Virus record (IMG/VR): IMGVR_UViG_3300008266_000033
Location: 64,412 to 128,411 of that record
DNA length: 64,000 nt
Source: a virus
Strand: one strand, 5' to 3'
The notes under the pieces are model-generated. The model ran no database searches. It was not told where the DNA came from and worked only from the letters and a program-made list of their open reading frames with translations. The translations under genes were made by a program, and so were the position numbers. Shown here piece after piece: positions 35,613 to 64,000 of the stretch. The first letter of the stretch is position 1. The number at the start of each line of letters is the position of its first letter.

Positions 35613-36593
35613 TTATTTTAATCCAGCTAATTTTTGCATTCTTGAGAATACATCATTAACTTCGATTATTGGTTGTTTTGTCTCTGGTTTTGAAATAACT
35701 TTAGAAGCTGAACCTAATGATTCTTTAATAGATGATTTGGTTTTGTTAGTATTTACCATTAAAGATTCATAAACTAGTTTTACTTCTTTTACATTTAATG
35801 CTTTATCAAAAGCACTTAAAACTTTAACTTTTTCAGACTCAGTCAATGATTTAGCTTTGAAAATCTTGTTGGTATAAAGAAGTTTTGCATTCAAAAGATT
35901 AATTTCGTTAAGTTCGCTTTTTAATGTTTTAATAACATCATATGCTTCTTTTAACTTTTCATCTTCTTCATCTTTTTTAGGAGCTGATTTTTTCTTATCT
36001 CTCATTGCTTGCATTTTCATCTTCATTGATTTTTCTTTTGCTGCTTCAGCTAAAAGTTCATCAATGCTGATTTCTTCTGCACCTCCCATTTCTTCTTCAC
36101 CACCCATTTCTGGTTGGCCACCTTCTAATTCTCCAGAAGCTACCATATCTTGAATTACATCTTCAATAAATTTGGTAAGATCTCCTTCTGACATGTCTTC
36201 GATGTTAAACTCTTCTTCAGTTTCCATTTCTTCGCCTTCTTCATCACCTTCGGCTTCGTAAAGTTCTTCTAAATCTTCACCTTCTTCCATTGGTTCTGAA
36301 TCTTTGTCTAATTCGGCTAGAAGTTCTTCTAAATCGAGTTCTCCTTCTTCCATTGATTCTTCGCCTTCTTCCATTTTCATATCGTCACCTTCATACATTT
36401 TTTCTTCATCCATGTACATGTTTTCTTCCATTTCATCCGCTTCATCTAATGCAGCGATTCTAGTGGCTAAGGTTTCTTTTAAAAATGGAGTAAAAGCTTC
36501 TTCTAAAGCAACTTTAGCTTGAGCTAATGCGGTTTCTTTTACTGCTTTGGCATCAGCGATAGCTTCTTTAAGCAGGTCTCTGTTTGATTCCAT
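35613..36593 (-). CDS. prohead core/scaffold protein (gp22-like)
   Basis: Very acidic and coiled-coil, many LxE sites, lies between protease and MCP, ends RMQKLAGLK. Confidence 0.8.
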   Translation of the reverse strand: MESNRDLLKEAIADAKAVKETALAQAKVALEEAFTPFLKETLATRIAALDEADEMEENMYMDEEKMYEGDDMKMEEGEESMEEGELDLEELLAELDKDSEPMEEGEDLEELYEAEGDEEGEEMETEEEFNIEDMSEGDLTKFIEDVIQDMVASGELEGGQPEMGGEEEMGGAEEISIDELLAEAAKEKSMKMKMQAMRDKKKSAPKKDEEDEKLKEAYDVIKTLKSELNEINLLNAKLLYTNKIFKAKSLTESEKVKVLSAFDKALNVKEVKLVYESLMVNTNKTKSSIKESLGSASKVISKPETKQPIIEVNDVFSRMQKLAGLK

Positions 36594-36626
36594 AAAATTT
36601 AATCCTCAAAATTTTTTGTTGGGAAA

Positions 36627-36690
36627 TATACTTATTAGTCAAGTATAATAAAAATAGATAGTTATCGATGCTATATCAGTAAAATAGCAT
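36627..36690 (-). promoter_or_regulatory. two-hairpin 5' leader of the scaffold-MCP operon
   Basis: Inverted repeats TATACTT/AAGTATA (36627-36647) and ATGCTAT/ATAGCAT (36668-36690). Confidence 0.45.
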
Positions 36691-36732
36691 ATTCGGGCAT
36701 ACATACCGCAAAAATTTTCAAAAAATCGATAT

Positions 36733-36783
36733 AAAAAAAGAAAGGCGCATTTCTGCGCCTCGATCCTAAAAGACTATTTTAGG
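36733..36783 (-). terminator. terminator (with an upstream hairpin) after prohead protease
   Basis: CCTAAAA-TAGTC-TTTTAGG, then AGGCGCA-GAAA-TGCGCCT followed by TTCTTTTTTT. Confidence 0.8.
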
Positions 36784-36790
36784 AGGGGTT

Positions 36791-37435
36791 CTAATATAAT
36801 GGGCATGTGCCATTAGCACATAAAATTTCGGTAATTAATTTATTTACTTTATTATATGGGTTTATATCGGTAGATTTACCTTCGGCTAATTGAACTGTTT
36901 TCATCCAAGATCCTGGATTTGATGGGTTTGATACTGCGTCCCATGTTAATAAATCAAAATCATCTTGAACTTCCATTACTTCTCCTACTTGTTCCAATGA
37001 ACCCATACCACGAGAAGAAATTCCAAATAATAGTTTATTTTTTATATAGGCTCCTAAAATTCTTCCTGATACTGTACCATATTCACCTGGATCAGAAAAT
37101 ACTTCTAATATTCCTTTTACATGATCACCATCCCACCATATTTTTCTGATTGCATGAGAGCCATTTTTTAAATTGATGATTTGGCTATCAGGATGGTCTA
37201 ATTCTCCCACTGTTTCAGTGGTACCCATATTAATTTTTTGCTGGAATTTATTTAATTCTCTTTCCCAAAGTTCTTTTTTATAATAACGACCATTACCATT
37301 TTTTACCTCTACAGTGGCTAATACCCCTTCAACAAATATGTTTTTATTTGAAGATATATTACCTAATCCTTCTATTAATTTAATAGGAGGAGTAGTATAA
37401 GTGAATGGTTTGGTTTCTATTAATAATTCTTTCAT
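36791..37435 (-). CDS. prohead core protease (gp21-like)
   Basis: N.NGRYY, GELDHP, SH.I, GISSRG.GS, DF.L..WD.VS.PS. Confidence 0.95.
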   Translation of the reverse strand: MKELLIETKPFTYTTPPIKLIEGLGNISSNKNIFVEGVLATVEVKNGNGRYYKKELWERELNKFQQKINMGTTETVGELDHPDSQIINLKNGSHAIRKIWWDGDHVKGILEVFSDPGEYGTVSGRILGAYIKNKLLFGISSRGMGSLEQVGEVMEVQDDFDLLTWDAVSNPSNPGSWMKTVQLAEGKSTDINPYNKVNKLITEILCANGTCPLY

Positions 37436-37441: not shown

Positions 37442-38260
37442 CTATTTATTACTAAATTGTTTTTGATAAGCATTATCACCAATTGCGTTTCTATGGAGTT
37501 GATTAATCTCATCCCAACCATCATCATTTACATATATTTTATCTTTAGTACCATCATCATAAGTTATATTATATGATGTATCACCATTTTGGGTATATGT
37601 TCTAACTGTTTTTCCATTAATCTCAATAGAACCTTCATTTAATTCTTCTTTAATAATTTTAGAAATATGTTCACGAAGTTTAGATTCTTTTACAATTTTG
37701 GGAGCTACTTCAACACCTGCGGCTTTATATTTACCTTTTACTTCTTTAGTAGGAGTTGATTCTTTATAACCTATACCTTTAATACCAAATTGGCTGTTTT
37801 TAGTATAATACATGATATCTTTAGCTAAATTTTTAGCTACGATAGCCTTTAATTCTTCAACTGTTTTTTCAGAATTTTTAGGATCTTTCATCTCAACATA
37901 GTAACCTGTAAGAAATTGAGGTCCAAAAACATTATCAATATTTTTAGGATCTTTATAATCAAAACCTCTAGTTTCCATATCAACTATTTCTTTAGTTGGT
38001 TTAGATTCTATAGCTTTAGCTTCATTAATATTTTCATCAAAAATTTTAAACCAATCTGGTTTTTGATCTGATTGAGTTACTAAACCACCAATAAATCTTT
38101 CAGTTAAAATAGATTTATTTTTTAAAATTTTAGTAGCATCATTAAATGAAGTGTATTGATTTACATATTGAGGAAATATACGTCTTGCAGATTTCATAAA
38201 GAAATCTTTATCACCTTTTCCTTCTAAAATTAAATTATATTGTTCTTGTAGTGTTTTCAT
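37442..38260 (-). CDS. hypothetical head-associated protein with LxE-ending leaders
   Basis: Begins MKTLQEQYNLILE; internal SKLREHISKIIKEELNE. Confidence 0.7.
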   Translation of the reverse strand: MKTLQEQYNLILEGKGDKDFFMKSARRIFPQYVNQYTSFNDATKILKNKSILTERFIGGLVTQSDQKPDWFKIFDENINEAKAIESKPTKEIVDMETRGFDYKDPKNIDNVFGPQFLTGYYVEMKDPKNSEKTVEELKAIVAKNLAKDIMYYTKNSQFGIKGIGYKESTPTKEVKGKYKAAGVEVAPKIVKESKLREHISKIIKEELNEGSIEINGKTVRTYTQNGDTSYNITYDDGTKDKIYVNDDGWDEINQLHRNAIGDNAYQKQFSNK

Positions 38261-38263
38261 TTG

Positions 38264-38773
38264 TTAGTCTTTAAATAAGGTTATTAAATCATCTAAGTAA
38301 GATTCAGCTATATCTGTACCAAACAATACTTGAAATTCTTTATTTCTTTCATAGAAATTTATAGTTTGTTGTTTAGCACTTTTAATTAAAGGAACTAATT
38401 CATTAATTTTATTTTCAATATTATCAAATCCTAAAATTCTATTAGAAATAAATTTCTTTAATTTTTTGTCTTCAATGCCTAATGAATTAATGTAAGTTTC
38501 TAAATCAAATTTATCTTCATTTAGTTTACTTTTCCATAAATCCTTATGGTCTATTCCTTTAGCTTTTTTATGTAGTGCCTTAGCATTTACAGGTTTGAAT
38601 CCTAACTTATAATAGTAAATATTTTGAGCACCTTTAGCTTTTTTATTTGGATTAAAAGCATTAGGAGTAGCATAATTAGCTCCTACACCAGGAGTAAAAG
38701 AAGCGCCACCACCAGTGGTGTTCATTTCTTTAATTTTTTTTCTAATTATTTCTCTAAGGTTAAGATTTTCCAT
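38264..38773 (-). CDS. hypothetical head-associated protein
   Basis: LREIIRKKIKE leader, then TTGGGASFTPG.G.NYATP.AF. Confidence 0.7.
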   Translation of the reverse strand: MENLNLREIIRKKIKEMNTTGGGASFTPGVGANYATPNAFNPNKKAKGAQNIYYYKLGFKPVNAKALHKKAKGIDHKDLWKSKLNEDKFDLETYINSLGIEDKKLKKFISNRILGFDNIENKINELVPLIKSAKQQTINFYERNKEFQVLFGTDIAESYLDDLITLFKD

Positions 38774-39614
38774 GGATTTTCTGTAATTCTTCTACTAATG
38801 AGCAATACTGAAGTAGATTTACTAAATCTTCATCTTTGATTTTATCTGATTCTTTTAATAAACTAGTAATTTCGTTTAATTTTATCTTTACTGATTCATC
38901 AGTAACTTTTTTAGTTAATGATAGTAAAGTTTTTTTAAACTCAAAAATCTTGGTATTATAAACTTCTTTTAATTTAACTATATTATCCGATGAATTAATA
39001 AATTCTTTTAGAATCAATTTCTGACCAGATGATAAATCCTTATATTTTTCGTTAAATTTTTCAAGTAAAATCTTATATGTTAAAACCCGAACATCTTTAT
39101 CGTAGCTTTTAAACTCAGAAATAACATCGTTTTCTACTTTTTGTTTATTGATAGTAGAAGCTGTTAAGTATTCTAATAAAGTGAGTTTATTATCTATAAT
39201 TTGTTTTGGATTTTTGGTCTTATTTTCTGAGGTGTAAAGCTCAATTAAGTTATATAATGAGGCTTGAGCTTTGTAATTAGGAAGTTTAGTTTGAAATAAT
39301 TCTTCTAAATTAAGAGTTTCTTTTATTTCTTTAACAAGATTATATTTTTGTCGTCTTAAAAGAGACTTATTTAAACCTTTAGAAGTTTCTATAACCGTAT
39401 TTAAAATAGACTCAGCTTTTGCTTCACTTATATTTCGATAGGAAAATAAAGTTTCATAAAGTTTATATTCTTTACCTAATTCTGTTTTTACAAAATATTT
39501 TTTCAAAATAGGTAAAGCTTTAGAATCTTTTCCTGATAAAGAATCGGCTGTGATTTTCCTTACTAAAATCTCAAATATAATTCCTGTGTTTCTAAGCTTA
39601 TTGTGCTTTATCAT
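38760..39614 (-). CDS. hypothetical protein of the head module
   Basis: 284-aa ORF between portal and protease; late motif at 39636-39645. Confidence 0.75.
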   Translation of the reverse strand: MIKHNKLRNTGIIFEILVRKITADSLSGKDSKALPILKKYFVKTELGKEYKLYETLFSYRNISEAKAESILNTVIETSKGLNKSLLRRQKYNLVKEIKETLNLEELFQTKLPNYKAQASLYNLIELYTSENKTKNPKQIIDNKLTLLEYLTASTINKQKVENDVISEFKSYDKDVRVLTYKILLEKFNEKYKDLSSGQKLILKEFINSSDNIVKLKEVYNTKIFEFKKTLLSLTKKVTDESVKIKLNEITSLLKESDKIKDEDLVNLLQYCSLVEELQKIHGKS

Positions 39615-43564: not shown

Positions 43565-43820
43565 ATTGTTTACGTAAATTAATTAATTTTTTCTGATTAT
43601 CTTGTAATACTGAATCTATTGTGGTTAATGAATCTTGGATTTGTATTAATTTAAAATTTAATGAATCTATTTTTTTAGATTCTAATTTAATTTCAATAGC
43701 TAAACTATCAATTTTTTTATCAGTAGTATTCTCTACTTTTGGTATAAAAGGGTTCCAAGTAATAAAAATTCCTAATAAAACTACCAATATAACTAAAAAT
43801 ATTTTATCCTGCGTTTTCAT
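43482..43820 (-). CDS. putative i-spanin (N-terminal TM plus coiled coil)
   Basis: IFLVILVVLLGIFITW followed by heptad KIDSL repeats. Confidence 0.5.
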   Translation of the reverse strand: MKTQDKIFLVILVVLLGIFITWNPFIPKVENTTDKKIDSLAIEIKLESKKIDSLNFKLIQIQDSLTTIDSVLQDNQKKLINLRKQYEKNISLINKFSSNGVSAYFTNRYNNK

Positions 43821-44337
43821 CTGAACCTTGTGATTTTAATTGTTTTTCTAATGATCTAACTTTTTTTGCTAAAAAAGCTAATTCTTTATTAGCTAATTTT
43901 AATTTTTGGTTTTTATTTGGTTCTAATTCTGTAAGATTTAGTTCATTAGTAGTAGCTCTTATTCTTTGACCAGGGGCAGCAGTTTTTAGTGCTTTTACAA
44001 CAGCTGATTTTTGTTGAATTTTAGGATCTTGTTGAACTGAAGTTTCTTCTTCATTACTAGATGTAGCTATAATATCTATTGTTCCTTCAGATAAAGTTTC
44101 AATAATAACTTCTTTAATATATTCTTTAAACTTAGATTTAGTCATTTTATTAGATTCATCTAAATTAAAACCTACATTAGCACCAGGAGAAGTTTTAACA
44201 AATGATTTATAATGATTATATAATCTAATAACCTTTACAAGATCATCTTTTATTGATTCTAGTTCTTTCATTTGATCAGAATCCTCACCAAATTTTTTAA
44301 CCAAATAAGATTTTAAATTTCCGTAATAATCTTTCAT
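43804..44337 (-). CDS. hypothetical protein with internal head-targeting-like helix
   Basis: LDESNKMTKSKFKEYIKEVIIETLSE; late motif at 44351-44360. Confidence 0.7.
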   Translation of the reverse strand: MKDYYGNLKSYLVKKFGEDSDQMKELESIKDDLVKVIRLYNHYKSFVKTSPGANVGFNLDESNKMTKSKFKEYIKEVIIETLSEGTIDIIATSSNEEETSVQQDPKIQQKSAVVKALKTAAPGQRIRATTNELNLTELEPNKNQKLKLANKELAFLAKKVRSLEKQLKSQGSDENAG

Positions 44338-44371
44338 ATAAAGTATTTTGTTATAAATATATTAAAAGGAT

Positions 44372-51493: not shown

Positions 51494-51760
51494 TTAGTAT
51501 TCTTCTATTTTTAATTTTAAATTAGTAGTTCCTTTTATAACTCGATGCCATTCTAATGCAGGTATAACTATTTGATCTCCAGGATTTAATTGTTTTGGTA
51601 AAGAATCTTCTTGTTGATAAGACCAACCTATACCTTCTAAAATTGTTATTTGCCTTGTTTTAAGATCTCTATGCCACATAAGTTCAATAGGATCTATATT
51701 TTCGTCAAATATACGAATTTTAGTATCTTCAGATATTATATTATCTTGGTATGGTTTCAT
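51494..51760 (-). CDS. cupin-fold protein
   Basis: WHRD...EG.GW...L.PGD...IP...WHRV; probable start at ATG 51760. Confidence 0.7.
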   Translation of the reverse strand: MKPYQDNIISEDTKIRIFDENIDPIELMWHRDLKTRQITILEGIGWSYQQEDSLPKQLNPGDQIVIPALEWHRVIKGTTNLKLKIEEY

Positions 51761-52934: not shown

Positions 52935-55900
52935 GATTTCTTTTGAGTAAAGAATTGAGTTAAATCTTTAGAAATTGTTTCTTTTAAATCACTTTCAACC
53001 ATTTTTAAATCATTCATACCATATACTCTTTGGTAAGATCTTTCTACATCAGCATATCCACCTTCAATACTATTATTATTTAATGTACTTTTTCCGGATA
53101 AGGTTTTAACTATTTTACCTTTATCATCAGATAATACCCATTTAGGATATAAAGTAGATCTTTCTTTATCAACAGGTAATAATGCATATGTGTTTGAACC
53201 ATCTTTTATAATAAAAGGTAATCCCCATATTAATGTAGCATATTCTGTATTTTGATCGTATTTTTCAGCTAATGTCATAATAGCTTTTCTTTCAGAATCG
53301 GATAAAGCAGTCCATTGAGAATATAACATTGGTCTAGGATCAATTTGCTGTTCAGGCATATCTGATAAATTTTCTAACTGTTCATCATCAATGTTAGTAT
53401 TGGCTTCATATTCCCAAGAATCAAATAATTTAGAATAAATTTCAAATAATTGCTTTAATTTAGGATCTTTAATATACTTGGATGCTTCTTTTGGTAAAAA
53501 GTCAAGATTTTTAATTTGTTTATTTACATAATCTGAGGTTACTTTTTCACCAAAGTATTTATCTAAATATTCATATGTTAAATATCCATCAAATGTATCA
53601 GCATACTTTTGTTTAGCGGCATCATCCAAATATTTTACATAAGGTAATGGAATTGGGTCTGCAGAATAATTAGTATGTCTAAATCTGAAAACTGCATATC
53701 GTTTTGCTAATGCTTCATTATCCTTTAAGGCAGAATATGAGAATTTTTGTCCACTATCGATAGCAACATTAGCTAATGTGGTTGATCTACCTTCTAAATT
53801 AATTTTATATTTAGGTAAGATAGCTAAAATATCAGGAGTAATTGCATTTTTAGAGGCTTTACCTTGAATATAGAGAATTTTTTCATCTTGAGTTAATTCT
53901 TTAAATTCATCTAAAGTTAAGTTTTTACCCGAAGCAAATTTTCTACCTCTTTCAACTGGTGATAAAGCAATTGGTTTAAAGTAATCTTTTAAATCTTTAA
54001 TTTTAGCCCATGTATCAGGAGGTACTATTTTTTCTATACCTTCCCAACCATTAGCACGTATATCACCTCTATTATTAGCTCCTGTAACAATATATGTTTT
54101 ACCATCTGCTGTTACTTGAATTACAAAAGCATGCCATTGATCATCAAAGCTTCCTTTAGGACCAGATGATGGTTTATTTCTATCAAATACAAAATAGAAT
54201 GTAGGTGATTGATCACCAAATCTATAATAATCATAATTTGTGTTTCCTATTTGAGTAACACACCACCCGTATTTTTTCGTACCTTTTTCTACTGGATTGT
54301 AAGAAATACATTTATGTACATCATCTCCTTTATAGATTTCTATTCCGTTTTTATCATAGATTTTATCAGCATCTGTAGATACTGTATTTTCTTCTCCTTC
54401 TACTGATTTTCCTGCTGCAGGAAATAATGCATCCATCATTTGTTCAAATGGTTCCCATGTCCAATTTCTAGGGTCTAGGTATGCATTGTTAATCATTAAA
54501 CGTTTAGGAACAAATTGATCTATATCTTCTTTTGATATGGTACTTCCTTCTTGTCCAGCAAATTTTAAATCATCTTTTTTGGTCATGAAGCGAGCTACAT
54601 AAGATTGAGCTGTATTTCTATCAATTCCTTCTTTTTCAACAAACTTTTTTATTGCTTCTTTTTTAGCTTTTTCTGGGTTTTCAGGGATTGAGGCAATTAA
54701 TTTAATCATATCCTCAAATGAGTATTGGTTAATATCTAAGTATTTGTTACTCTTTTTTAATTCATCTGGTAGAACAACTATATCTAATTTTTGTGCTAAT
54801 GAACCTTTAATTTGATCAAAACGTTGAATCAATTGTTTTGCAGCATTTTGATCATATCCTTTTTCATCTTTCCAACGATCAAGAGTAGCATTAATTACTT
54901 TATCACTATATTCATTTAATTGATCAGGTTCAGCATTATCATTAATTTTTAATGCTTGTAAAATTTGTTCTTTGGTAGCATTTCCATCAGCAAATATCTT
55001 ACTGTCATCTATATTTTTTTCATCAGGATCAGGTAATCTTAAAGCTTTTCCTGATTTAAAATACTTACTATAAATATATAGTTGACCAGCTTGTGGATTT
55101 TCTGTTTGAGTTTGAGCTATTAATATAGGTTCTCCTTTGTAATAAGATAATACAAAAGTAGATCTCATACTTCTAACATAATCACCATCACCTTTTATCC
55201 ATCCTACCCAAGTTTCTTTAGGTTCAATTCCTAATTTATTAAAAACACTTAAAACTCTTTGTCTAGTTCTATTATCAACATTTTTACCATAGAAAGAAAC
55301 TGAGGCTCCTACTCTTCCTTTAGAAACATCATATTTTCCTATTTTTAAATCTAAAACGGGGAATGAGCTAGGATCTTTAATTTTACTACTAGGTGCTTTT
55401 ACTCTAATTTCATCTAAACCTGTTGCGCTAAAGTCATCTGATTTTAAATCAACAGTAATATCTCTTAAAGTATCTTTAACCCATTTTTGTTGTGATGGAG
55501 TTAATTCTTCGTTTATTGCGTTTTCTATAAATAAAATAAATTCATCATCATCTAATTGATATACTTCTTGGAAAAAGAATTCTCTAGCTCTTAAATCATC
55601 AGAAAGTCCACTATCAATAAAAGCATTATTTAAAGCATCAAAAATGAATTTACCATAACGAATATCTGATGGTTCGTTTTTAAGTAAATCTACTTTATCA
55701 ACTACTGCTTGATTAGCTTCTTTATCTCCTTTAAATCCTTGTAATGAAATTAATTCATATAAACCTTTAATTAATTCGTGAACTAACATTGGAAAACAAA
55801 TTGCACGAGCTTTAATTGTAATACCTGAATCTGCTTCGATTATTTGGCTTTCAGTTAAAATATTTTTTATTTTATCTTCAATCTCATTTTTAAAATCTTC

Positions 55901-56644
55901 AAAACCTTCTTCATCATCACTAAAAAAGAATTTTTCCCAAACTAAATTATTTATTGCGTCTTCAGATTTAAGTTTAACAATAGTATTAATGATTTCATCA
56001 TAATATTCATTATTTTCATCATCATCCTCATCTTGCAATGATTTAAAATAATCTATAACTGCTTGTCTATAATATTTAAATCTATTAGGAACTAGAACTT
56101 CAATTTCTTTCATAATTACTTTAGAAGAACCACCAGCCATTTTTTGTCCTTGTGCTAACATAGACAAAAACATAGCTATTGCGTTTTCATCATCATAAAC
56201 ACCAAATACTTTTTTCATTATTTGGTTGTAATTTTCTACTAATGATGGATCTAAATCATCTAAATGTTCTTTAAATAAATAGAATGCAAATGCCCCACGC
56301 AATGCAGCACCTTGTGTAATTGCGTTAGTAATACGACGACGAGATTCTGGTGAAAGGGCTTCATCTAATTCTCTTCCTACCTCAGCCATATCCACTATTT
56401 TAGCATCTAAAACAATACCTTCTTGATCAATGATAGGGTAAAGTTCTTTAACCATATCTACAGCTAATTGTTCTAACTGTGCTTTATATGGTGCTTCTGC
56501 TCTAATGATTTGAGATAACAATCGTTGAGAAGACATCATAGCCTGCATGAGATTTTCATTACCTAACATATCTTTTAGGTTCTCTGAAGACTTTTTATTT
56601 AATTTTTGTAATGTTTTAGAGCTAAAAAAATCTTTGTATTCCAT
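52928..56644 (-). CDS. large modular protein (putative polyprotein)
   Basis: 1238 aa; junctions IMKEIEVLVP, ILTE/IIE, GLDEIRVKAP, QLNE, DLKE. Confidence 0.75.
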   Translation of the reverse strand: MEYKDFFSSKTLQKLNKKSSENLKDMLGNENLMQAMMSSQRLLSQIIRAEAPYKAQLEQLAVDMVKELYPIIDQEGIVLDAKIVDMAEVGRELDEALSPESRRRITNAITQGAALRGAFAFYLFKEHLDDLDPSLVENYNQIMKKVFGVYDDENAIAMFLSMLAQGQKMAGGSSKVIMKEIEVLVPNRFKYYRQAVIDYFKSLQDEDDDENNEYYDEIINTIVKLKSEDAINNLVWEKFFFSDDEEGFEDFKNEIEDKIKNILTESQIIEADSGITIKARAICFPMLVHELIKGLYELISLQGFKGDKEANQAVVDKVDLLKNEPSDIRYGKFIFDALNNAFIDSGLSDDLRAREFFFQEVYQLDDDEFILFIENAINEELTPSQQKWVKDTLRDITVDLKSDDFSATGLDEIRVKAPSSKIKDPSSFPVLDLKIGKYDVSKGRVGASVSFYGKNVDNRTRQRVLSVFNKLGIEPKETWVGWIKGDGDYVRSMRSTFVLSYYKGEPILIAQTQTENPQAGQLYIYSKYFKSGKALRLPDPDEKNIDDSKIFADGNATKEQILQALKINDNAEPDQLNEYSDKVINATLDRWKDEKGYDQNAAKQLIQRFDQIKGSLAQKLDIVVLPDELKKSNKYLDINQYSFEDMIKLIASIPENPEKAKKEAIKKFVEKEGIDRNTAQSYVARFMTKKDDLKFAGQEGSTISKEDIDQFVPKRLMINNAYLDPRNWTWEPFEQMMDALFPAAGKSVEGEENTVSTDADKIYDKNGIEIYKGDDVHKCISYNPVEKGTKKYGWCVTQIGNTNYDYYRFGDQSPTFYFVFDRNKPSSGPKGSFDDQWHAFVIQVTADGKTYIVTGANNRGDIRANGWEGIEKIVPPDTWAKIKDLKDYFKPIALSPVERGRKFASGKNLTLDEFKELTQDEKILYIQGKASKNAITPDILAILPKYKINLEGRSTTLANVAIDSGQKFSYSALKDNEALAKRYAVFRFRHTNYSADPIPLPYVKYLDDAAKQKYADTFDGYLTYEYLDKYFGEKVTSDYVNKQIKNLDFLPKEASKYIKDPKLKQLFEIYSKLFDSWEYEANTNIDDEQLENLSDMPEQQIDPRPMLYSQWTALSDSERKAIMTLAEKYDQNTEYATLIWGLPFIIKDGSNTYALLPVDKERSTLYPKWVLSDDKGKIVKTLSGKSTLNNNSIEGGYADVERSYQRVYGMNDLKMVESDLKETISKDLTQFFTQKKSW

Positions 56645-56645
56645 A

Positions 56646-56930
56646 TTATCGTATAAATATTCTATTTAATGTAAATAAGAATTCTTCTTCACCATATCCC
56701 ATATCTTCATATATTTTAGATATTTCTACTAAACTATTAACATCATCTGGGACTTCGCTTAGTGCTTGTTTAAAATCAGCTATATATTCTTCAGGATCTT
56801 CAAATTCAAGCTCTTCTGCTGTATCTGCCATATCTTGTACTAGAGCTGCTTTTAATGTATCTAACGAAACAGGAATAATCCCACCTGGGGATTTTACCTT
56901 AATTTCATTTAAAAGATCAACTAGTTTCAT
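56646..56930 (-). CDS. small acidic protein with leader MKLVDLLNEIKVKSP
   Basis: 94 aa; D/E-rich after the leader. Confidence 0.75.
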   Translation of the reverse strand: MKLVDLLNEIKVKSPGGIIPVSLDTLKAALVQDMADTAEELEFEDPEEYIADFKQALSEVPDDVNSLVEISKIYEDMGYGEEEFLFTLNRIFIR

Positions 56931-57163
56931 TTTGATAATTTTTTAAAGCGAGCAGCAATTTTTTTAGCCATTTCTTCTTCCTTCATCATAGCCTTTGGTC
57001 TAGGATTAGGAGCTTTATCTTTATCAGGAACTAAGGATCTACGTTTAGGTTTAGTTCCAGTTTCTTCTTTTTCTTTGGTTCCTGGTTTAGTTATAGTTTC
57101 GTTTTCTTTTAAAGAATTTAAAAGTTCTTCTTTAATAATTCTACGGAGTTCTGAAAGATTCAT
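56927..57163 (-). CDS. small protein with leader MNLSELRRIIKEE
   Basis: 78 aa; K/P/E-rich. Confidence 0.7.
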   Translation of the reverse strand: MNLSELRRIIKEELLNSLKENETITKPGTKEKEETGTKPKRRSLVPDKDKAPNPRPKAMMKEEEMAKKIAARFKKLSK

Positions 57164-57178: not shown

Positions 57179-57727
57179 TTATCCGAAATATTGATTTTCA
57201 AAATACAATACTTCAAAGTTATTAGATACGTTAATTAATTGGGCTGCGTTTAATAAATCAGCATATTCTGCTACTGATGTTTTTTGGATAATTCTTAATT
57301 CTTGTAAGAAATCAAAAGTAGCTAAATCTGCTGGAAATACTTCTGCTGAATTTGAGTTATATTTGGCAAATAGATCATATTCTAATTGATATGCTTTATT
57401 TACTACATCGATAAGATTAGAAAATACAGGAATCATTTTAACCGAAGGAATAACAGGCATTACATTCCAACTAGTTAAATAATTTTGTATTTTTTCAGCA
57501 TGAGTTAACTCATTATCTGCTTCTGCTTTAAAATAAGCTGCTGCTTTTTTATATGCTTTATCTTCACACCAGTTAGATGCGTTTCTATAGAAATAGTGAG
57601 CAGTATATTCGTCACCTATTCTTTCAATAAGCATTTTAGCTACTTCAGGTGATAAAGTTTTAGGAATTAAAACTTCTGATTGTGAAGCAGGTTGTATTTC
57701 GTTAAGTAAATTTAACTTATTATTCAT
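57179..57727 (-). CDS. ferritin-like protein
   Basis: E..A..FY....WC....Y..AA.YF..EA..E..HA.K..Y; E; D.AT.DFLQ....Q..EY ferroxidase pattern. Confidence 0.85.
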   Translation of the reverse strand: MNNKLNLLNEIQPASQSEVLIPKTLSPEVAKMLIERIGDEYTAHYFYRNASNWCEDKAYKKAAAYFKAEADNELTHAEKIQNYLTSWNVMPVIPSVKMIPVFSNLIDVVNKAYQLEYDLFAKYNSNSAEVFPADLATFDFLQELRIIQKTSVAEYADLLNAAQLINVSNNFEVLYFENQYFG

Positions 57728-57739: not shown

Positions 57740-58642
57740 TTACCAGTAACCACTAAAGTTTTTAGAACCACCCAAAGATTTCCAATATCTACCTATTCGG
57801 CAAGACCAATATGAGGCTTTAGTTCTATCTGTCTTTTGTGCACATTTGTGTCGTTTAGCAAAAGCATTTCTAGCTTTAGGATCATTTATTTTTGTTGATA
57901 AACCACCTGAATCTCCAAAAGATACTTTTCTAACTTTACCTTTATCCATTACATAAACATAGAATTTCTTACCTGAAGATCCTCCACGTTTTGGTTTACC
58001 AATTTGTACTTTTTTGCCTTGATATTCTGCTTCATTTAAATCTAATAAATGTTTATAATCATCATAAACATCATAATCTATTAAAATAGACATAATATTA
58101 TTTAAATCAAATTTAGGAGCAGAATATGCATCTAATAAATCTTGATATAAATCTGAATCAGGGCCCCAATCATTACTAACATAAGTTAGAATTTTTTCAT
58201 AAGGTACAGCAGATACCATATCAGCCATTTCTATATCTTCCATTCCTCCTAATGTATCTCCAAAAATGTCAAGAGTTTCTTCAATCATAGGCATATCTAA
58301 GGGTACTAATTTACCCTCATATAAACCATATTGACCTAAATCAGTTTCTAATATAATTTCTTTATCTAATCCTGATAAACTAACGGCATTGCGAGAATAT
58401 AAATAACGAGCTTCAGCCCATAAATCTAAAAATGATTTAGAGCCATATCGGAATGTGTTTTCAGTAAGCGGTTTTTTATTGTCTATATGATATTTCATAT
58501 TTTCGGTCATAACCACTTGCGCTTTTAAACCTTCATTTAATATAGGCGCTTTAGAACAACCACCACCACATCCACAACCACAGTCATGTTTTACATTTTG
58601 TTTTAATAAAACTTCTCTAATGATTTTTTTGATGTTTTCCAT
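57740..58642 (-). CDS. modular protein (CxCxC N-terminus; LNE-preceded basic C-terminal module)
   Basis: IKKIIREVLL leader; LNEAEYQGKKVQIGKP...KVSFGD...RHKC...YWSC. Confidence 0.75.
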   Translation of the reverse strand: MENIKKIIREVLLKQNVKHDCGCGCGGGCSKAPILNEGLKAQVVMTENMKYHIDNKKPLTENTFRYGSKSFLDLWAEARYLYSRNAVSLSGLDKEIILETDLGQYGLYEGKLVPLDMPMIEETLDIFGDTLGGMEDIEMADMVSAVPYEKILTYVSNDWGPDSDLYQDLLDAYSAPKFDLNNIMSILIDYDVYDDYKHLLDLNEAEYQGKKVQIGKPKRGGSSGKKFYVYVMDKGKVRKVSFGDSGGLSTKINDPKARNAFAKRHKCAQKTDRTKASYWSCRIGRYWKSLGGSKNFSGYW

Positions 58643-58653: not shown

Positions 58654-59787
58654 TTACTGTATTTTGACAAATTCTCCATCTATCAATTCATAAATATGGG
58701 TAGCTGAAGTTGCTATTTTTTTAGTTTGAACAATTGATTCATTGTGTTTTATTCCAAACATATTTCTATCATAACGATATGAAGCCACAAAATATGGATA
58801 GTAATCACCTTGAGGGATTTGTGGGGGTAATAAATAGTAAGGAGCAGATAAACTATATAAATTTTCTCCTTGAGGTATAAGTTGGATTTCTCCTTGTGTT
58901 ATAATGTTTACATTTTCTGATCCATAAGAATTACTTCCATATTCAGGACCATAAATTAATTTTCTGATTAAATTTTCATTCTTTACAGGAGCTATAAATT
59001 TTGTAGTATTAGGCATTCCTACTAAACCTTTATCAATAAGAAACTTTTTTAATTTTAAAATGAATTCTTCAACTTCAGGTTCATTTTCATATCTAGTAAA
59101 ACCACTCCATCTTATAAAATCACCTGCAGATGGTTCTGATCCTCCTGATTTTTTATGAGAGATAAAAATTTGAGGATTACTATCTTGATCAAATAAGAAA
59201 AAATCTGCTTTTGGTGTTTTAGGTTGAGTTGCAGCTCCTATAATATTATTATAAATTTGTCCTCCAACTATTATATTGATAGGTTCTCCATTATTTTGTT
59301 CAATACGAGTTTGAATTTTTTCTGAGAGTAATCTTAGATTATAATCTTCAACTTTTGTACCTGAGCCTTTGCCTTTACCTCCAAAATATGGATCTTTTAA
59401 TAAATCAGAAATACTATATTCTGTTCCTGAATCGTCTTTAAAAAACTTAAATAAATTTATATCTTTAGGGGAAAATAATTTTATTCTAGCATCTTCTGCT
59501 TTTTCAAAAGCCTCTTGATATTCAGGTTTTGAAAATTCTAAAGCAGTAGAACTTCCGTTAACTAATTCAAATGGAACTTTATTTTTAATTCTAGTGGCTA
59601 GATCTTTAAATCTATAACCTCCTCGTTTTTTTAAATCTCCAAATGATAGTTGCTTAAAAATTTCGTGTAAACCCATTTGTTCAAAAACTGATTCCAAAAT
59701 TAAGATATCCTGTTCATTATTCATGTCAGGATATCCTTTTGGAAATTTATATGCTATTTTATTTAAGAATGTATCTAAAATGTCCAT
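58654..59787 (-). CDS. putative PD-(D/E)xK-fold nuclease with N-terminal leader
   Basis: E.YNL...TPKADF...IFISHK; leader YKFPKGYPD...ILE...LHE. Confidence 0.5.
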   Translation of the reverse strand: MDILDTFLNKIAYKFPKGYPDMNNEQDILILESVFEQMGLHEIFKQLSFGDLKKRGGYRFKDLATRIKNKVPFELVNGSSTALEFSKPEYQEAFEKAEDARIKLFSPKDINLFKFFKDDSGTEYSISDLLKDPYFGGKGKGSGTKVEDYNLRLLSEKIQTRIEQNNGEPINIIVGGQIYNNIIGAATQPKTPKADFFLFDQDSNPQIFISHKKSGGSEPSAGDFIRWSGFTRYENEPEVEEFILKLKKFLIDKGLVGMPNTTKFIAPVKNENLIRKLIYGPEYGSNSYGSENVNIITQGEIQLIPQGENLYSLSAPYYLLPPQIPQGDYYPYFVASYRYDRNMFGIKHNESIVQTKKIATSATHIYELIDGEFVKIQ

Positions 59788-60299
59788 TATGCTGGTACTT
59801 CAGGTGTTTCTTCTTCTGGTGCTTCTTCTGGTGTTTCTGGTGGTGCTTCACCTGTTTCTTCTGGTGGTGTTTCACCTTCTCCTGGTTCTTTTTCAGGTTG
59901 TTCTGGGGCTGTAAAGTAAAGTAGTCTTGCTATTGCTTCGGCTGCTCTTTCTTCTTCATCTAAATTAAGTAAATAATATTTTTTACCTTCTACTTGAGCT
60001 ATCCAACTTCTATCAGTATGAATTATATAAAATAATTGGTTATTTTTTAATTCAATTTGAAAAGTGGTTGGTCTAGGAGCAATCCATGCTACATCTTCAA
60101 CAAATAAATTATAATTTGTGGTTAAAAGATCTATTAAAACTTGCTTTAATTCAGGAAACTTAGATAATATAGGTATAACATTATCATCTAGTGATATGTC
60201 TCCAGAATTTGGCATATCTAAATCTACGGACTTTTGTTTAGAAGACCAAACTTGCTTAACTAAAGTTTTAATTTTATCTTTTAATTCAGACTTAGTCAT
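59787..60299 (-). CDS. hypothetical protein with acidic Pro/Glu tail
   Basis: MTKSELKDKIK leader; EETPE repeats at the C-terminus. Confidence 0.7.
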   Translation of the reverse strand: MTKSELKDKIKTLVKQVWSSKQKSVDLDMPNSGDISLDDNVIPILSKFPELKQVLIDLLTTNYNLFVEDVAWIAPRPTTFQIELKNNQLFYIIHTDRSWIAQVEGKKYYLLNLDEEERAAEAIARLLYFTAPEQPEKEPGEGETPPEETGEAPPETPEEAPEEETPEVPA

Positions 60300-61108
60300 T
60301 ACTTACCTTTTAATTTAGAAATTACTTTTTCAGCTAGTTTCTTTTTATATTCATTAAGTACTGGTTCTTCATCAGAGTAATCTACATATTCCATAATGTA
60401 ATGCATAGGTTCACCTTGAGGTTCATCTTCACTTTGTAGATAATCAGAAACAGATTGTAAATAATCTTGAGCTTTAGTTAATTTGGATTGAACCCATGCA
60501 TCTAATTGTTCCCCATCATCTATAAGATTAGCTAATTTATCAACATTTTGCTTAATAGATGTTAATTGAGAATCAGCCATGCTTGATTCATCATTTTGTT
60601 GCATCCAATCATCTTCTTTAAGCATAGCTTTTTTAATAGCTAAATCTCTTGCAGCTAAATAATCTTTAGAATCAATTTTTCCATCAGGTTTTCCTTCAGG
60701 TCCTGTTAAATCTTTACCTTTTTTTTCAGGAATTGGTTTCATTAAAGCAGATTTAACTGCTTCTTTAATTTTTGATTGAGTTTCTTTTTTCATTGTACTT
60801 TTAGCTCTTTTTATTGAAGAACCTTTAGCCATTTTTTCAGCATCTTTACCATATTTACTAACTAATGATCTTTTATTAGTGGCGATCATAGCATTAAAAT
60901 ATTCTTGGGCTAATTCTTCTTCTTTATCAGATAAACCTTCAGAAACTTTAAGTGCTTTTTTAAGAGGTTTAATTGCTTTTTCTCTTTTTTTCTCTAAAGA
61001 TTTAGTTAATTTAGCTTTTTTGGCACCAGGTTGAGTTTGAGGTTTTCCTGTTTTAGCTAAATTAGTAGCTAAAGCATATGCTAACCCTGTTTTCTCTTTT
61101 TTTGTCAT
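60299..61108 (-). CDS. modular hypothetical protein
   Basis: Basic N-terminus, DGKIDSKDY, MA.SQL...L.AWVQSKLT.A.DYL; LKE/LNE linkers. Confidence 0.7.
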   Translation of the reverse strand: MTKKEKTGLAYALATNLAKTGKPQTQPGAKKAKLTKSLEKKREKAIKPLKKALKVSEGLSDKEEELAQEYFNAMIATNKRSLVSKYGKDAEKMAKGSSIKRAKSTMKKETQSKIKEAVKSALMKPIPEKKGKDLTGPEGKPDGKIDSKDYLAARDLAIKKAMLKEDDWMQQNDESSMADSQLTSIKQNVDKLANLIDDGEQLDAWVQSKLTKAQDYLQSVSDYLQSEDEPQGEPMHYIMEYVDYSDEEPVLNEYKKKLAEKVISKLKGK

Positions 61109-61530
61109 TACATTTCTTCGTCTGAGGAAATCTGAGTTCTGGTGAAATAAGTTAAAACATTACCTATTTGTCTAGTAAGTTTTTTATCTCCTAATTTTTT
61201 AGATGCTTTTAGAGCTTGCATTAACTCTTTTTGAACTTGTTCAGGAGTAGTTAATTCAGTATCTCCTTCATCATCCATAGGCATTTCATCAGCAGGCATT
61301 TCTTCTGGTGCTTCTTCAGCAGGCATTTCTTCTTCTGCTGGTACTTCTTCTTCTGCTTTTTTGGCCTCTTCTAATTCATCTTCAGGAGTTTCCATTTCCT
61401 TAAGAATCATTTCTTTAATTTTAGCTTTTAAAGAAGATTTAGTATATGTTTCTTGCATTTCTTCCTCAGGCATAAAACCTTCTGTTAATATACCTGCAAG
61501 TTTTTGCATTCTTTTAATATCTAAGCTCAT
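61108..61530 (-). CDS. acidic scaffold-like protein with N-terminal RMQKLAG
   Basis: MSLDIKRMQKLAGILTE; SSLKAKIKEMILKE. Confidence 0.75.
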   Translation of the reverse strand: MSLDIKRMQKLAGILTEGFMPEEEMQETYTKSSLKAKIKEMILKEMETPEDELEEAKKAEEEVPAEEEMPAEEAPEEMPADEMPMDDEGDTELTTPEQVQKELMQALKASKKLGDKKLTRQIGNVLTYFTRTQISSDEEM

Positions 61531-62172: not shown

Positions 62173-62178
62173 GTTAGG

Positions 62179-62751
62179 TTAGGTTTTTTTGAGGTTTTGT
62201 AAGTATTTGATTGTCTCTTCTTTACTTTCAAGTAACCTTTGTTTTGAAGAACCTATCCATCTTTCAACATCTCCAGCTTCGGTAATGTATGATTGATTAG
62301 ATTCATTTATTAAATCCTCCATCCAGGATTCAAAATCAACTATTAAATTATCAATGTCATTATTGATTATATTTTTTTCATATTCATCCCATAAACCTAG
62401 TCTTCTTAATTCTGTTTCAAACTCAATTTGACAACCATAACATCTTTTATACTGGATGTAAAATGGTTTATCGTATTTGTGTTTCATTAGCTTATTACAG
62501 CTAGTACAGAACAAGGGAAAAGAGGCAGATTTTTTAGCAGTATCTAATTTGGTAAAATTTTGTTTAATACCATTTTTAATGGTCCATTTTCTACCATCTT
62601 CTTCCCAAACATCACCTTCTTTATGAGATTCTTCTTTTTTTGTATAACCTACTCCAGAAGTAGAACGTTCCCCATATTTACCTTGAACTAAATTACGAAG
62701 GCGCTGGATGTCTTTCTTTTGGAATTCTTTCTTTAAAACTGATTCTGACAT
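62179..62751 (-). CDS. hypothetical Zn-ribbon protein
   Basis: C..C (CTSC) and CYGC; EGDVWEE.G..W.IKNGIK. Confidence 0.7.
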   Translation of the reverse strand: MSESVLKKEFQKKDIQRLRNLVQGKYGERSTSGVGYTKKEESHKEGDVWEEDGRKWTIKNGIKQNFTKLDTAKKSASFPLFCTSCNKLMKHKYDKPFYIQYKRCYGCQIEFETELRRLGLWDEYEKNIINNDIDNLIVDFESWMEDLINESNQSYITEAGDVERWIGSSKQRLLESKEETIKYLQNLKKT

Positions 62752-62756
62752 TGGAG

Positions 62757-63137
62757 TTATTTTTTCTTATTCATTGGGGTTTCCCCTTTTAATTTAGCAA
62801 TTCTTTCCTTAGCGGCTTTAGCTTTTTCAGAAATTTCTTTTTTAGTACTTCTGTAGCTTTCCATTTCAGTTTCTAATTCATTTAATTGAGATTCAAACTC
62901 TTTGAGTAATTCATTAGCTGTTCTATTAGCTTCTGATCTATTTTTATATACTCCGTGAGTTTCATCTTTATTAATTTCATCAAAAACTGTAACTTCACAA
63001 ACCATATCTTCTTTAGCCATTCCCATTTTAGGACGTTTTACTTGATAAACCTTTCCAATATCATCATATACTTCATATTGGGGTTCGGTTTCTTCTAATA
63101 TTTCTAAAATAAGTGATTTTAATTGTGACAGTTTCAT
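62757..63137 (-). CDS. hypothetical protein with leader MKLSQLKSLILEILEE
   Basis: 126 aa; late motif at 63155-63164. Confidence 0.72.
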   Translation of the reverse strand: MKLSQLKSLILEILEETEPQYEVYDDIGKVYQVKRPKMGMAKEDMVCEVTVFDEINKDETHGVYKNRSEANRTANELLKEFESQLNELETEMESYRSTKKEISEKAKAAKERIAKLKGETPMNKKK

Positions 63138-63170
63138 AATTATTATATTTTTATTTATAAATATATATTT

Positions 63171-64000
63171 TTAACGAGAAGGTTCGTTATATATTACATT
63201 TCCTTTATCATACAAATCTTTTAATACATTTAAATCTCGTTTTGAAAGTGAACCTATAAAAGGATAAAATTCATCTTTTACAACTTGATTTTTTGGTATT
63301 AAAATAATAAATGGTTGGTCTCCATAGGGTAGAAATGTATAATAAGGACCTAAATCAACCAATTCTAATGTATAATCTGCTTTAAAAACATCAGTATCTA
63401 TGATAGCTTTGCATCTATGAATTTTTCCTGTATCAAAATCAAGACTAGAGGGTTTGTTTATCTTAATTTCCTGTAAACCATCTATATCTTTAAGTAGATT
63501 TTTAGGATCTTCAATTGTAAAATATTCTTTTGTAAGTCTAGTAAAATACTCTCCAGATAAATTGTAAGAAAATCTATTTAACATTCCCGTAGGAGGACCA
63601 ACAACTAATTGTTGTGGTAATTCATTTTTTATTTTTTCAAATATTTCAGGTTTAAGAGTTACAAGAATATTTGGTCCTATAGATTGATATGTTTTAGAAC
63701 AACAAAGATCAGAAATAGAACGATCTGTTAATTTCATTCCTTTATAAGAAATAGTTCCTGAAAACATTCCTGGATATTTTTCAGGATTAACAGCATGTTC
63801 AACTGTATAAACTAATAATCCTGAGGGTCGTTTTATAGAAATTTCATCTATATTATATTTTTTATAGTATTTATCTAAGATAGGAGAATTAATATATTGT
63901 TTAAATATTTTTAGTAAAGTTACTTTTTTATTTCCAGGGGCTCGTTTTAAAGCATCTTTTATAACCTCATCATCGAATTTAGCAATAACATCTCCTGCTT
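63171..64000 (-). CDS. modular protein (putative polyprotein), 5' end outside the window
   Basis: Frame is open from the window edge (AGDVIAKFDD...); junctions NIDEISIKRP and GLQEIKINKP. Confidence 0.7.
   Translation of the reverse strand, partial: AGDVIAKFDDEVIKDALKRAPGNKKVTLLKIFKQYINSPILDKYYKKYNIDEISIKRPSGLLVYTVEHAVNPEKYPGMFSGTISYKGMKLTDRSISDLCCSKTYQSIGPNILVTLKPEIFEKIKNELPQQLVVGPPTGMLNRFSYNLSGEYFTRLTKEYFTIEDPKNLLKDIDGLQEIKINKPSSLDFDTGKIHRCKAIIDTDVFKADYTLELVDLGPYYTFLPYGDQPFIILIPKNQVVKDEFYPFIGSLSKRDLNVLKDLYDKGNVIYNEPSR

Follow-up and report, generated by a model that had tools for sequence, protein, structure and literature searches.

Why do proteins of otherwise unrelated sequence, encoded beside the head genes of one virus, start with the same few short peptides, and what would these peptides do? 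We examined this question in a window of 64,000 nucleotides (nt), which is the second half of the 128,411-base virus record IMGVR_UViG_3300008266_000033; all coordinates are those of this window unless the record is named. An earlier note on this DNA had proposed that, in the block from 35613 to the end of the window, a shared amphipathic helix ending in (L/I)xE serves as a code for loading accessory proteins into the phage head. Judged from sequence, the leaders probably do act in T4-style capsid targeting followed by clipping by the prohead protease, using mimicry of the scaffold tail. What stood of the proposed code were the portable leaders, the (L/I/V)xE sites, the late promoters and the presence of an S77 protease with a gp23-type capsid protein; the single helix and the loose (L/I)xE rule did not stand. 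In an all-against-all blastp-short comparison with shuffles, followed by motif scans, the examples split far beyond chance into separate families, at least three kinds of leader in all, which we call A, B and D. The strongest family, the RMQKLAGI or B tag, was absent from the earlier note. The best evidence, a C-terminal scaffold tag that reappears as an N-terminal leader, is different from what had been described.

The head module and the scaffold-tail peptide

The window has a G+C content of about 30% (25-35% across its length), and its called genes lie nearly all on the minus strand. It carries a T4-type head module consisting of a major capsid protein (MCP), a scaffold-like gene, a protease, three genes in core position, the portal (39656-41545) and the large terminase (41568-43151). 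By terminase identity the nearest named phages were the Flavobacterium 'immuto' phages (57%) and Microcystis phage Mel-JY01 (52%), followed by an uncultured 484-kb phage. The source is a T4-like phage of aquatic bacteria whose nearest cultured relatives are the immuto group and Mel-JY01, and the block appears, on present evidence, to be the accessory, late-expressed part of its head region. The MCP (33965..35581, minus strand) matched the Pfam family Gp23 (PF07068, 262 bits, 1.4e-77) and has a propeptide-like N-terminal region. Its first 59 residues hold five (L/V)xE sites; the LVTE noted earlier at residues 56-59 is indeed there, and L49, E50 (LLE) and E59 (VTE) were invariant across 34 relative sequences. 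In the alignment with mature T4-type gp23, MCP residue 82 stands opposite residue 30, which puts the T4 cut near MCP residue 52/53; the T4 record shows LTE at residues 63-65 of gp23. Members of the Gp23 family combine a match to the profile with a removable N-terminal piece (ending near residue 65 in T4), and the MCP has, as read from its sequence, both features.

The gp21 homologue suggested for 36791..37435 (minus strand) was confirmed as a prohead protease of the gp21/Peptidase S77 family (PF03420, 5.3e-24, 85.2 bits against a cut-off of 27; PDB 5jbl, T4 gp21, 4.6e-15). It begins with MKELLIET, T4 gp21 begins with MNEPQLLIET, and LLIE was kept in the displayed orthologue rows. The alignment with 5jbl places an H in ELDHP and an S in GISSRG at positions where the crystallised chain shows A (NAP, VASRG); these may be the catalytic residues, mutated in the crystallised construct. 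Between the protease and the MCP sits the gene for an acidic scaffold-like protein of 326 amino acids (aa; 35613..36593, minus strand). It ends in ..KQPIIEVNDVFSRMQKLAGLK, also read as ..DVFSRMQKLAGLK, and this C-terminal end is the B tag with an IIE site ahead of it. When the whole scaffold was searched against GenBank phages, only immuto, Mel-JY01 and LR756508 were matched, and tblastn with its 45-residue tail, a query too short for the purpose, returned zero matches there. The immuto scaffold-like gene (L001 26607-27848; immuto record 125582-126823) also lies between protease and MCP and has the B tag at its end (..SRWQKLAGIIK), while the Mel-JY01 scaffold ends in ..ERMKKLAGIVK (..ILNESNNVVERMKKLAGIVK). 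The immuto gene is labelled 'DNA polymerase phi-like protein', probably because of an acidic low-complexity stretch.

The B tag has the consensus F-x-RMQKLAGI, and as a full leader it reads (M-K-K-Q-I-L-S-E-E)-F-x-R-M-Q-K-L-A-G-I. The pattern F-x-R-M-Q-(K/Q)-(L/I)-A-G-(I/L) occurred six times in the genome; the tag stands at the end of the scaffold, at both ends of a 914-aa protein, and at the starts of 61108-61530 and of a gene in the early half of the record (MKKQIISEEFRRMQKLAGIITKSQLNE). In the 914-aa protein (47877..50621, minus strand; a variant of the late-like promoter motif lies 22 nt upstream) it occupies residues 8-21 (GEFLRMQQLAGIEF) and the C-terminus (EEFLRMQKIAGLKK). Its orthologues P0018 and P0049 were tagged at both ends as well, and in P0012 the tags lie close to the N-end and some 80 residues short of the C-end. 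The acidic 140-aa protein encoded at 61108..61530 (minus strand) starts with the B leader MSLDIKRMQKLAGILTE, directly followed by G, and continues with another helix, SSLKAKIKEMILKE; its gene opens a long late unit, with a late-like motif ending at 61555, 25 nt upstream.

Our results revealed that the same peptide recurs widely in uncultured viruses. A degenerate DNA pattern for RMQKLAGI matched at least 120 stretches of IMG/VR, and the IMG/VR counts given here for the B tag cover the matches listed. All 121 of these were in frame: 94 formed the extreme C-terminus of scaffold-like open reading frames (ORFs) of about 300-470 aa and 27 stood elsewhere, nearly all of them N-terminal, usually in the form MKKQILSEEFxRMQKLAGIITE. 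Among 120 listed loci, a gp23 homologue was present in 90 and a scaffold homologue in 89. The tag was coupled to a putative cleavage site in both positions. In the unique N-terminal leaders, [ILV]xE followed with its E 4-7 residues after the Gly in 26 of 26, versus 18% of background windows, and in 68 of 89 unique scaffold tails an [ILV]xE ended exactly 6 residues ahead of the tag. The 24 proteins behind B leaders fell into 22 unrelated clusters, and Pfam gave one weak match (DUF6438) among 25 bodies. Furthermore, 10 of the 26 N-terminal occurrences lay 0.5-6.5 kb from TerL, portal or core genes on the same strand. In one complete 183-kb genome (L068), whose scaffold ends in ..SRWQKIAGIK, the head-core cluster itself contains a B-leader gene (3516-3929, MNNDIKRMQKLAGILSEGF..), flanked by the core169-like gene and the core272-like one; a protein that starts like that of 61108-61530 sits within this cluster.

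A search of a library of 1.84 billion proteins with a leader profile extended these numbers: 1038 cluster representatives were retrieved at E<=1e-3, 129 of them at E<=1e-10. Among the best 150 of the 1038, 144 had the motif starting no further in than residue 20, and [ILV]xE came after it in 142 of the 144, in 135 cases at G+4. The 121 bodies of at least 80 aa in the same best 150 formed 80 clusters, and none of the 150 had the B leader on a body that bears A or D in our genome. Many leaders hold two successive sites, such as IITE-SQLNE. Only 4 of 50,697 GenBank phage records carried the B leader, all of them immuto, in which two small proteins begin with it (25470-25865 and 111631-112095), and a text search of the literature did not find the string 'MQKLAG' in published papers.

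How might such a peptide act? The leader would dock its protein into the assembling prohead, and a B leader would do so at the binding site of the scaffold tail, which presumably lies on the inner side of the capsid protein or on the core. The gp21-family protease would cut after (L/I/V)-x-E next to the leader and free the cargo. A cut 6 residues before the scaffold tag would release the scaffold from that tail, and cuts at every junction would separate the modules of the modular proteins described below. The released proteins would stay in the head and enter the cell together with the DNA. Another reading accepts that the leaders are real, portable and conserved and gives them a different purpose, for instance assembling or oligomerising with the scaffold while still in the cytoplasm, being recognised by a chaperone, serving some protease as a signal for degradation or timing, or binding a host target. 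LxE would then belong to the helix and would not be a cut site. Portability and conservation do not tell what a tag binds, neither Pfam nor PHROGs assigned a function to any cargo, and GroEL/GroES-like genes are encoded (record 43010-44964, outside the window, judged by their N-termini and the immuto annotation). Even so, we consider another purpose rather unlikely. In 94 of the 121 listed matches the tag is the extreme C-terminus of the scaffold, which in other phages is the place where the coat protein is bound. The [ILV]xE stands at a fixed distance in 26/26 listed and 142/144 library leaders (best 150 of 1038) against the 18% background, and the genes are late and often lie beside TerL, portal and core genes. 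A complex prediction for the MCP monomer with the last 45 scaffold residues scored 0.00, which counts neither for nor against such binding.

The A leader and the junctions of modular proteins

The A leader has the consensus M-K-L-(V/I)-(D/N)-(L/I)-L-(N/S)-E, with MKLVDLLNE, MVKLIDILNE and MIKLINILSE as members and MKLINLLSE outside the window. A junction motif, [LIV]-x-E-I-K-[VI]-x-x-P, occurs inside long modular proteins, where its inter-module form is ..K-I-V-N-x-L-N-E-I-K-V-x-x-P. Because the internal ..VKIVNNLNE matches MKLVDLLNE, the small A-leader genes can be said to start with a junction; in the acidic 94-aa protein at 56646..56930 (minus strand) the leader MKLVDLLNE runs straight into IKVKSPGG. 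Sixteen junctions, spaced 80-170 residues apart, were found inside a 1795-aa protein (record 4611-9998, outside the window), which also has the motif as its first residues (MNEIKV), and three in its 500-aa neighbour. Across the genome the strict pattern occurred 23 times, and a pattern that also requires [LIVM] at P3 occurred 26 times, where shuffled sequences gave a mean of 3.5.

Nine homologues of the 1795-aa protein were found. In the five that we read (29-48% identical) the junction was common to all, and the kinds and the order of the modules differed. Over 74 junctions from six homologous proteins, P3 was L in 36, I in 21 and V in 9 (66/74), P2 was polar and P1' was I in every case. The homologues P0003 and P0006 matched Imm5_like, Imm5 and DUF6931, and P0006 ends in an HExxH domain (HEMIH, a zincin-like motif). 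P0006, 1699 aa long, has six Imm5-type modules, along with weak matches to TIR_2 and TcdB_N that lack a significant stretch. In the genome studied here, the 1795-aa and 500-aa proteins had no Pfam family, the 1795-aa protein had no PHROG family either, and no HExxH was noticed in the two on reading. An AlphaFold2 model of two modules (mean pLDDT 64.5, built from a six-row alignment) showed folded modules connected by low-confidence junctions devoid of secondary structure, and it matched nothing in the PDB at E<=0.001. Protein and alignment searches of viral contigs found no relatives of the 1795-aa protein, though 50 stretches matched a pattern; the metagenome contigs gave only two short ones, L197 and L198. 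The A leader itself was sought with a strict DNA pattern, which matched 31 IMG/VR stretches carrying about 14 different bodies, and in 30 of the 31 its ATG was the first ATG of the ORF. As a raw count, an S77 protease was present in four of the five large contigs with an A leader, the fifth being a 34%-complete fragment.

Two further observations concern the nature of the junction. In locus L037 the B tag runs directly into it (..RMQKLAGINEIKINKP), so that the junction's I-N-E replaces the usual I-I-T-E, and the junction DNA is fairly uniform (AAT GAA ATT AAA GTA), with some synonymous variation. One could take the junction instead as a conserved inter-domain linker or cassette boundary of proteins of the polyvalent or poly-immunity type, kept for spacing or for shuffling by recombination; any cut would then be made by another enzyme, such as the protein's own zincin domain, and the A leader would be a remnant of a boundary. 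The homologues with Imm5, Imm5_like and DUF6931 modules in differing order around the same junction fit this, as do the one homologue ending in HExxH, the uniform junction DNA and the junctions in an ORF that possibly ends a fibre-like protein (see below), and the idea that polyvalent proteins are processed by peptidases of their own has already been published (PMC5512222, in the portion available to us). This explanation, which bears on the junctions only, is in our judgement unlikely, as L, I or V at P3 in 66 of 74 junctions is the preference of gp21-type enzymes, the junction takes the place of I-I-T-E behind a B tag, and the linker is predicted to be unstructured yet is strongly conserved in protein while its DNA varies synonymously. 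Moreover, the 1795-aa and 500-aa proteins are those in which neither a Pfam family nor HExxH was seen.

Within the window, A leaders and junctions were also found on other bodies. A 136-aa Cys-containing protein (51757..52167, minus strand) starts with MIKLINILSE, and a basic 256-aa protein with an isoelectric point (pI) of 9.9 (52164..52934, minus strand) has the A leader MVKLIDILNEILLEE ahead of a DUF5872-like block, for which the Pfam match was below cut-off and covered residues 16-51 only. In the family of the latter (3684 matches; 120 listed homologues) the leader is A-like or D-like on one and the same body, and for this reason A and D look like one continuum. The 1238-aa protein at 52928..56644 (minus strand) belongs to no known family, with no Pfam or PHROG family and nothing in the protein atlas; it has one junction, GLDEIRVKAPSS, at residues 409-420 (GLDEIRVKAP). 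The ferritin label given earlier to 57179..57727 (minus strand) fits its ferritin-like sequence (Pfam Ferritin 1.2e-17, residues 32-163), and the protein has a 31-residue N-terminal extension in which MNNKLNLLNE, an A-like leader one residue shorter, is followed by IQP... At the end of the window and contig an open ORF (63171..63998, minus strand) contains the junctions NIDEISIKRPSG and GLQEIKINKPSS; it shows homology to modules of the 1795-aa protein. Joining the contig ends (63171-63998 plus record 1-1807) keeps the reading frame, for which the chance is 1 in 3, and gives an 878-aa ORF with a fibre-like N-terminal part, containing Gly/Ser/Thr repeats, and a C-terminal part with the junctions. 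The ends had no terminal overlap, and no homologue was found to span the joint.

The D leader, late-like promoter motifs and the weight of the evidence

The D leader is an amphipathic helix, x-(E/K)-L-(K/R)-x-(I/L)-(I/V)-x-x-x-(I/L)-x-E, that also forms the start of a head-core protein. Three small genes at 37442-39614 occupy the place of the T4 core genes. The first gene of this unit encodes a 284-aa protein (38760..39614, minus strand; its late-like motif ends at 39644), homologues of which adjoin the portal in 32 of 120 listed loci. The 169-aa protein at 38264..38773 (minus strand) is the prototype of the leader, MENLNLREIIRKKIKE being followed by MNTTGGGASFTPG, with MNTTGGG after the leader; its orthologues retain the helix and [IL]xE ahead of a conserved S/TTG..GASFTPG block. 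The 272-aa protein at 37442..38260 (minus strand) has an N-terminus like a T4 capsid-targeting sequence (CTS), MKTLQEQYNLILE followed by GKG, and an internal D-like helix, SKLREHISKIIKEELNE. Among the displayed orthologue rows having this N-terminus, 13 of 14 showed [ILV]xE at residues 11-13.

A hidden Markov model (HMM) of the D leader was built solely from orthologues of the 169-aa gene in other phages and run on this genome. Its top seven non-self matches were the N-termini of 62757, 51164, 57740, record 61062, 59787 and 56927 and the internal helix of 37442, six of the seven starting at residue 3-4. The best one (5.9 bits) was the 126-aa protein of 62757..63137 (minus strand; leader MKLSQLKSLILEILEE), the first gene of a late unit with the motif at 63163. 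The others in the window include a 62-aa protein (51164..51352, minus strand; MKNQLITKLIKEALKKRLTE, 4.9 bits from residue 4), a basic 78-aa protein of pI 10.0 (56927..57163, minus strand; MNLSELRRIIKEE) and a 170-aa protein with a D-like start, MTKSELKDKIKTLVKQ (59787..60299, minus strand). In the 300-aa protein of 57740..58642 (minus strand; 4.8 bits) the D leader is followed by a CGCGC knot and PILNE, together MENIKKIIREVLLKQNVKHDCGCGCGGGCSKAPILNE and then G; most of the N-termini printed for its family (7719 matches) again show the helix, the CGCGC block and (A/S)P(I/T)L(N/T)E. A 177-aa protein (43804..44337, minus strand; late-like motif at 44359) has an internal D-like helix, MTKSKFKEYIKEVIIETLSE. 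All ten N-terminal peptides cited in the earlier note were present at their minus-strand starts (MKLVDLLNE at 56930, MVKLIDILNEILLEE at 52934, MIKLINILSE at 52167, MKLSQLKSLILEILEE at 63137, MNLSELRRIIKEE at 57163, MENIKKIIRE at 58642, MKNQLITKLIKEALKKRLTE at 51352, ..LREIIRKKIKE at 38773, MKTLQEQYNLILE at 38260 and MNNKLNLLNE at 57727), and its three internal ones were located in 37442-38260, 43804-44337 and 61108-61530.

The units headed by a late motif were likewise real. The late-like motif TAT[TG]TATAA[ATC][AT]AAA occurred 20 times on the coding strand versus once on the other, and 19 of the 20 copies lay 15-46 nt before a called start; the 20th is 25 nt ahead of a Met, internal to the called ORF, of the B-leader gene among the early genes. 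It heads 12 genes between 4191 and 32185, a region that includes fibre-like paralogues, and also 38760 (the core unit), 43804, 47099, 47877, 61108, 62757 and the 1795-aa gene. A second promoter-like motif, CGTATNTTTAY, was found ten times, always on the coding strand, and in seven cases 14-50 nt before a start; its sites are 51139, 45745 and 45420, the three inside the block, and seven in the first half of the record, and it heads genes without leaders, such as the denV-like 50644-51117. By a crude assignment of each gene to the nearest upstream motif, 15 of 89 genes in late units carried leaders versus 0 of 71 elsewhere (Fisher p=1.4e-4). None stood behind early motifs, and the tail-side late region had leaders in 0 of 29 genes. 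Of the 15 leader genes, 14 have an [LIV]xE no later than residue 20, and the 914-aa protein has one at residue 28; the ferritin-like gene, which is outside the 15, has it at residue 10.

Several results weigh against capsid loading with protease clipping, and part of them could be explained by composition. In a genome of about 30% G+C, N-termini rich in K, N, I, L and E would let an amphipathic MK(L/I)..(L/I).E recur by chance, and A/T-rich codons are favoured at gene 5' ends. The reported enrichment of (L/I)xE in the block held within the first 12 residues (14/35 block genes versus 18/120 genes elsewhere in the genome, Fisher p=0.003) and was lost within the first 20 (16/35 versus 35/120, p=0.10), while [LI]xE was found in 16-29% of internal 20-residue windows, about 27% for block proteins. 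The loose [LI]xE motif alone is weak, near chance at 20 residues, and some of the cases first listed rest solely on it. The D model is of little help by score: its non-self matches reached 3.0-5.9 bits when shuffles gave a first-rank mean of 4.2, so that the weight rests on their N-terminal position. Several weak members, among them the internal helix of 43804-44337 (1.9 bits), are within the shuffle range, and 59787-60299 has no [LIV]xE in its first 45 residues, contrary to a uniform rule. As a general account of the leaders, chance is nevertheless very improbable. The codons of RMQKLAGI contain G and C and vary synonymously, and the peptide stands on more than 1000 clusters; the junction motifs number 23-26 versus 3.5 expected; the A-leader match is the first ATG in 30 of 31 ORFs; and leaders are absent from the 71 genes outside late units.

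The remaining points of this kind concern the junctions, the cargo and the mechanism. If the contig is circular, junctions would lie on the C-terminal part of a tail-fibre-like protein, beyond the reach of a prohead protease, and the HExxH domain of P0006 could be its own processing enzyme. Behind the junction Glu, I-K-V-x-x-P shows stronger conservation than a gp21-type site would require; for such sites the available part of a review (PMC9026906) stresses that little apart from the Glu is decisive. Among 30 relatives of the ferritin-like protein, [LIVM]-[NK]-E was present within residues 5-20 in 12 and absent from 18. The contrast between late and early genes depends on the crude unit assignment and is partly circular, because the A and T4-CTS-like sets were picked by eye within the block, which does not apply to B and D. 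Mimicry of the scaffold is also without direct precedent in T4, since T4 gp22 has no such tail. What we observed directly are the motifs, how portable they are, where they lie, how they go together with (L/I/V)xE, the late-type promoters ahead of them, and that the genome encodes the protease and the capsid protein; it is from these that we infer binding, cleavage, packaging and injection; a literature search for immuto and Mel-JY01 did not find the virion proteome of a relative. We put forward more tentatively, with somewhat less than even confidence, that a large aquatic T4-like clade, nearly all of it uncultured, loads its capsids by scaffold mimicry and that its protease also chops giant modular proteins, built from immunity-protein-like and other modules, at the conserved junction into about 17 injected pieces. 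Equally tentative is the corollary that a tag of about 20 residues plus a protease site may address more than 1000 unrelated protein families into the head.

The suggested identities of the cargo, 'nuclease-like' and 'acidic mimic', are leads only: Pfam and PHROGs gave no functions, and the protein atlas had only weak nuclease-type leads for 58654-59787. Some members of the block are very basic (pI 9.9-11.7) and others very acidic; T4 internal proteins are described as basic in the accessible part of PMC9026906. The 46-aa protein of 51352-51492 (pI 11.7, MAKAKTQSTPKRIEKPKVRRKG..), in a long late unit and without a leader, might be a DNA-condensing internal protein. A pyrimidine-dimer glycosylase gene (denV-like, 50644-51117, Pfam Pyr_excise 1e-6) lies between leader-bearing units, and T4 denV adjoins ipII and ipIII; the linkage may be old or a coincidence. 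Also between leader-bearing units, behind a variant of the late-like motif, is a homing-endonuclease-like gene (47099-47716; NUMOD3 0.007; start MTKIYILERDGVPFYVGKA); this GIY-YIG-like protein, not on the earlier list, contains the loose motif clearly by chance. Just upstream of the terminase, 43148-43564 encodes a small protein that begins like a signal peptide and is hydrophobic at its C-terminus, and Mel-JY01 encodes a similar protein (MIKLFIFFVVFLPTTIFSQ..) in the same place, upstream of its terminase.

Comparison with known systems and meaning for the phage

The CTS of T4, carried by IPI, IPII, IPIII and Alt and removed by gp21, and the leaders described here are alike in form: each is a short N-terminal peptide, a propeptide in T4 and a putative one here, that closes with (L/I)xE and heads proteins otherwise unrelated and in part basic. 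In T4, a Glu-to-Asp change at the site leaves targeting intact but stops the cut (PMC9026906). Both phages have a gp21-family protease, with LLIET at the N-terminus, a gp23-family MCP and head-core genes between portal and protease. The likeness to the CTS itself is limited to 37442-38260, whose start (MKTLQEQYNLILE) resembles the MKTYQEFIAE of IPII and IPIII (IPI begins MKTFKEF..ITE; T4 record); the A, B and D leaders are unlike it. The 914-aa protein tagged at both ends recalls Alt, both termini of which are propeptides according to the part of PMC9026906 at hand. Unlike in T4, RMQKLAGI copies the C-terminal tail of the phage's own scaffold, whereas T4 gp22 ends in ..VYAKVASRF. There are at least three kinds of leader, the modular proteins have a site at every junction, and the system is known here from sequence alone. 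Its scale is also far above that of T4, with 15 leader genes in the genome and more than 1000 clusters in public data.

Short terminal peptides that place a protein inside an HK97-fold shell are familiar from the coat-binding C-termini of scaffolds (P22 and others) and from the cargo-loading peptides of encapsulins. The arrangement here is not that of an encapsulin: the tag is N-terminal on the cargo and joined to a protease site, and the shell protein is a phage gp23, accompanied by portal and terminase. In the giant phages phiKZ, 201phi2-1 and SPN3US many head proteins are cut after Glu at redundant propeptide sites, and many leaders here have two successive sites. The phiKZ-type phages use a diverged gp21-like protease with the motif S/A-x-E, whereas here the site has L, I or V at P3 and comes after a discrete conserved tag; the available portion of PMC9026906 describes no shared tag for them. 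Polyvalent proteins are very large and multidomain, their genes lie beside those of the virion, and both packaging and processing are predicted for them (Iyer et al. 2017, PMC5512222, in the part available), which resembles the 1795-aa homologues with Imm5-type modules. Their processing is credited to metallopeptidase domains of their own, and the word 'linker' is absent from the main text of that paper (PMC5512222). The idea is not new in kind, because it follows the logic of the T4 CTS, which the accessible part of a review already proposes as a route for T4-like phages to take up varied proteins (PMC9026906, PMC3012670). The system works like that of T4, with family membership only at the level of the protease and the capsid protein; what is new is the tag copying the scaffold tail, its invariant coupling to a cut site and its scale, and the modular proteins studded with junctions.

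Since the only GenBank phage records with the leader are those of immuto and the motif is unpublished as far as the literature search goes, the immuto phages and their host, Flavobacterium sp. LMO8, offer a ready test system. As a mechanism, we propose that cargo borrows the docking peptide of the scaffold, and the tag might become a tool for bringing foreign proteins into capsids, a use to which the T4 CTS has already been put (PMC9026906, PMC3012670, in the parts seen). If capsid loading with clipping is true, it would explain why an invariant junction is kept in huge modular proteins. More than 1000 protein clusters whose function is unknown bear the tag, and the leaders would then be a computable marker, read from sequence only, of the proteins that these phages carry into the cell, an injected proteome whose early-acting effectors are otherwise found only through virion proteomics.

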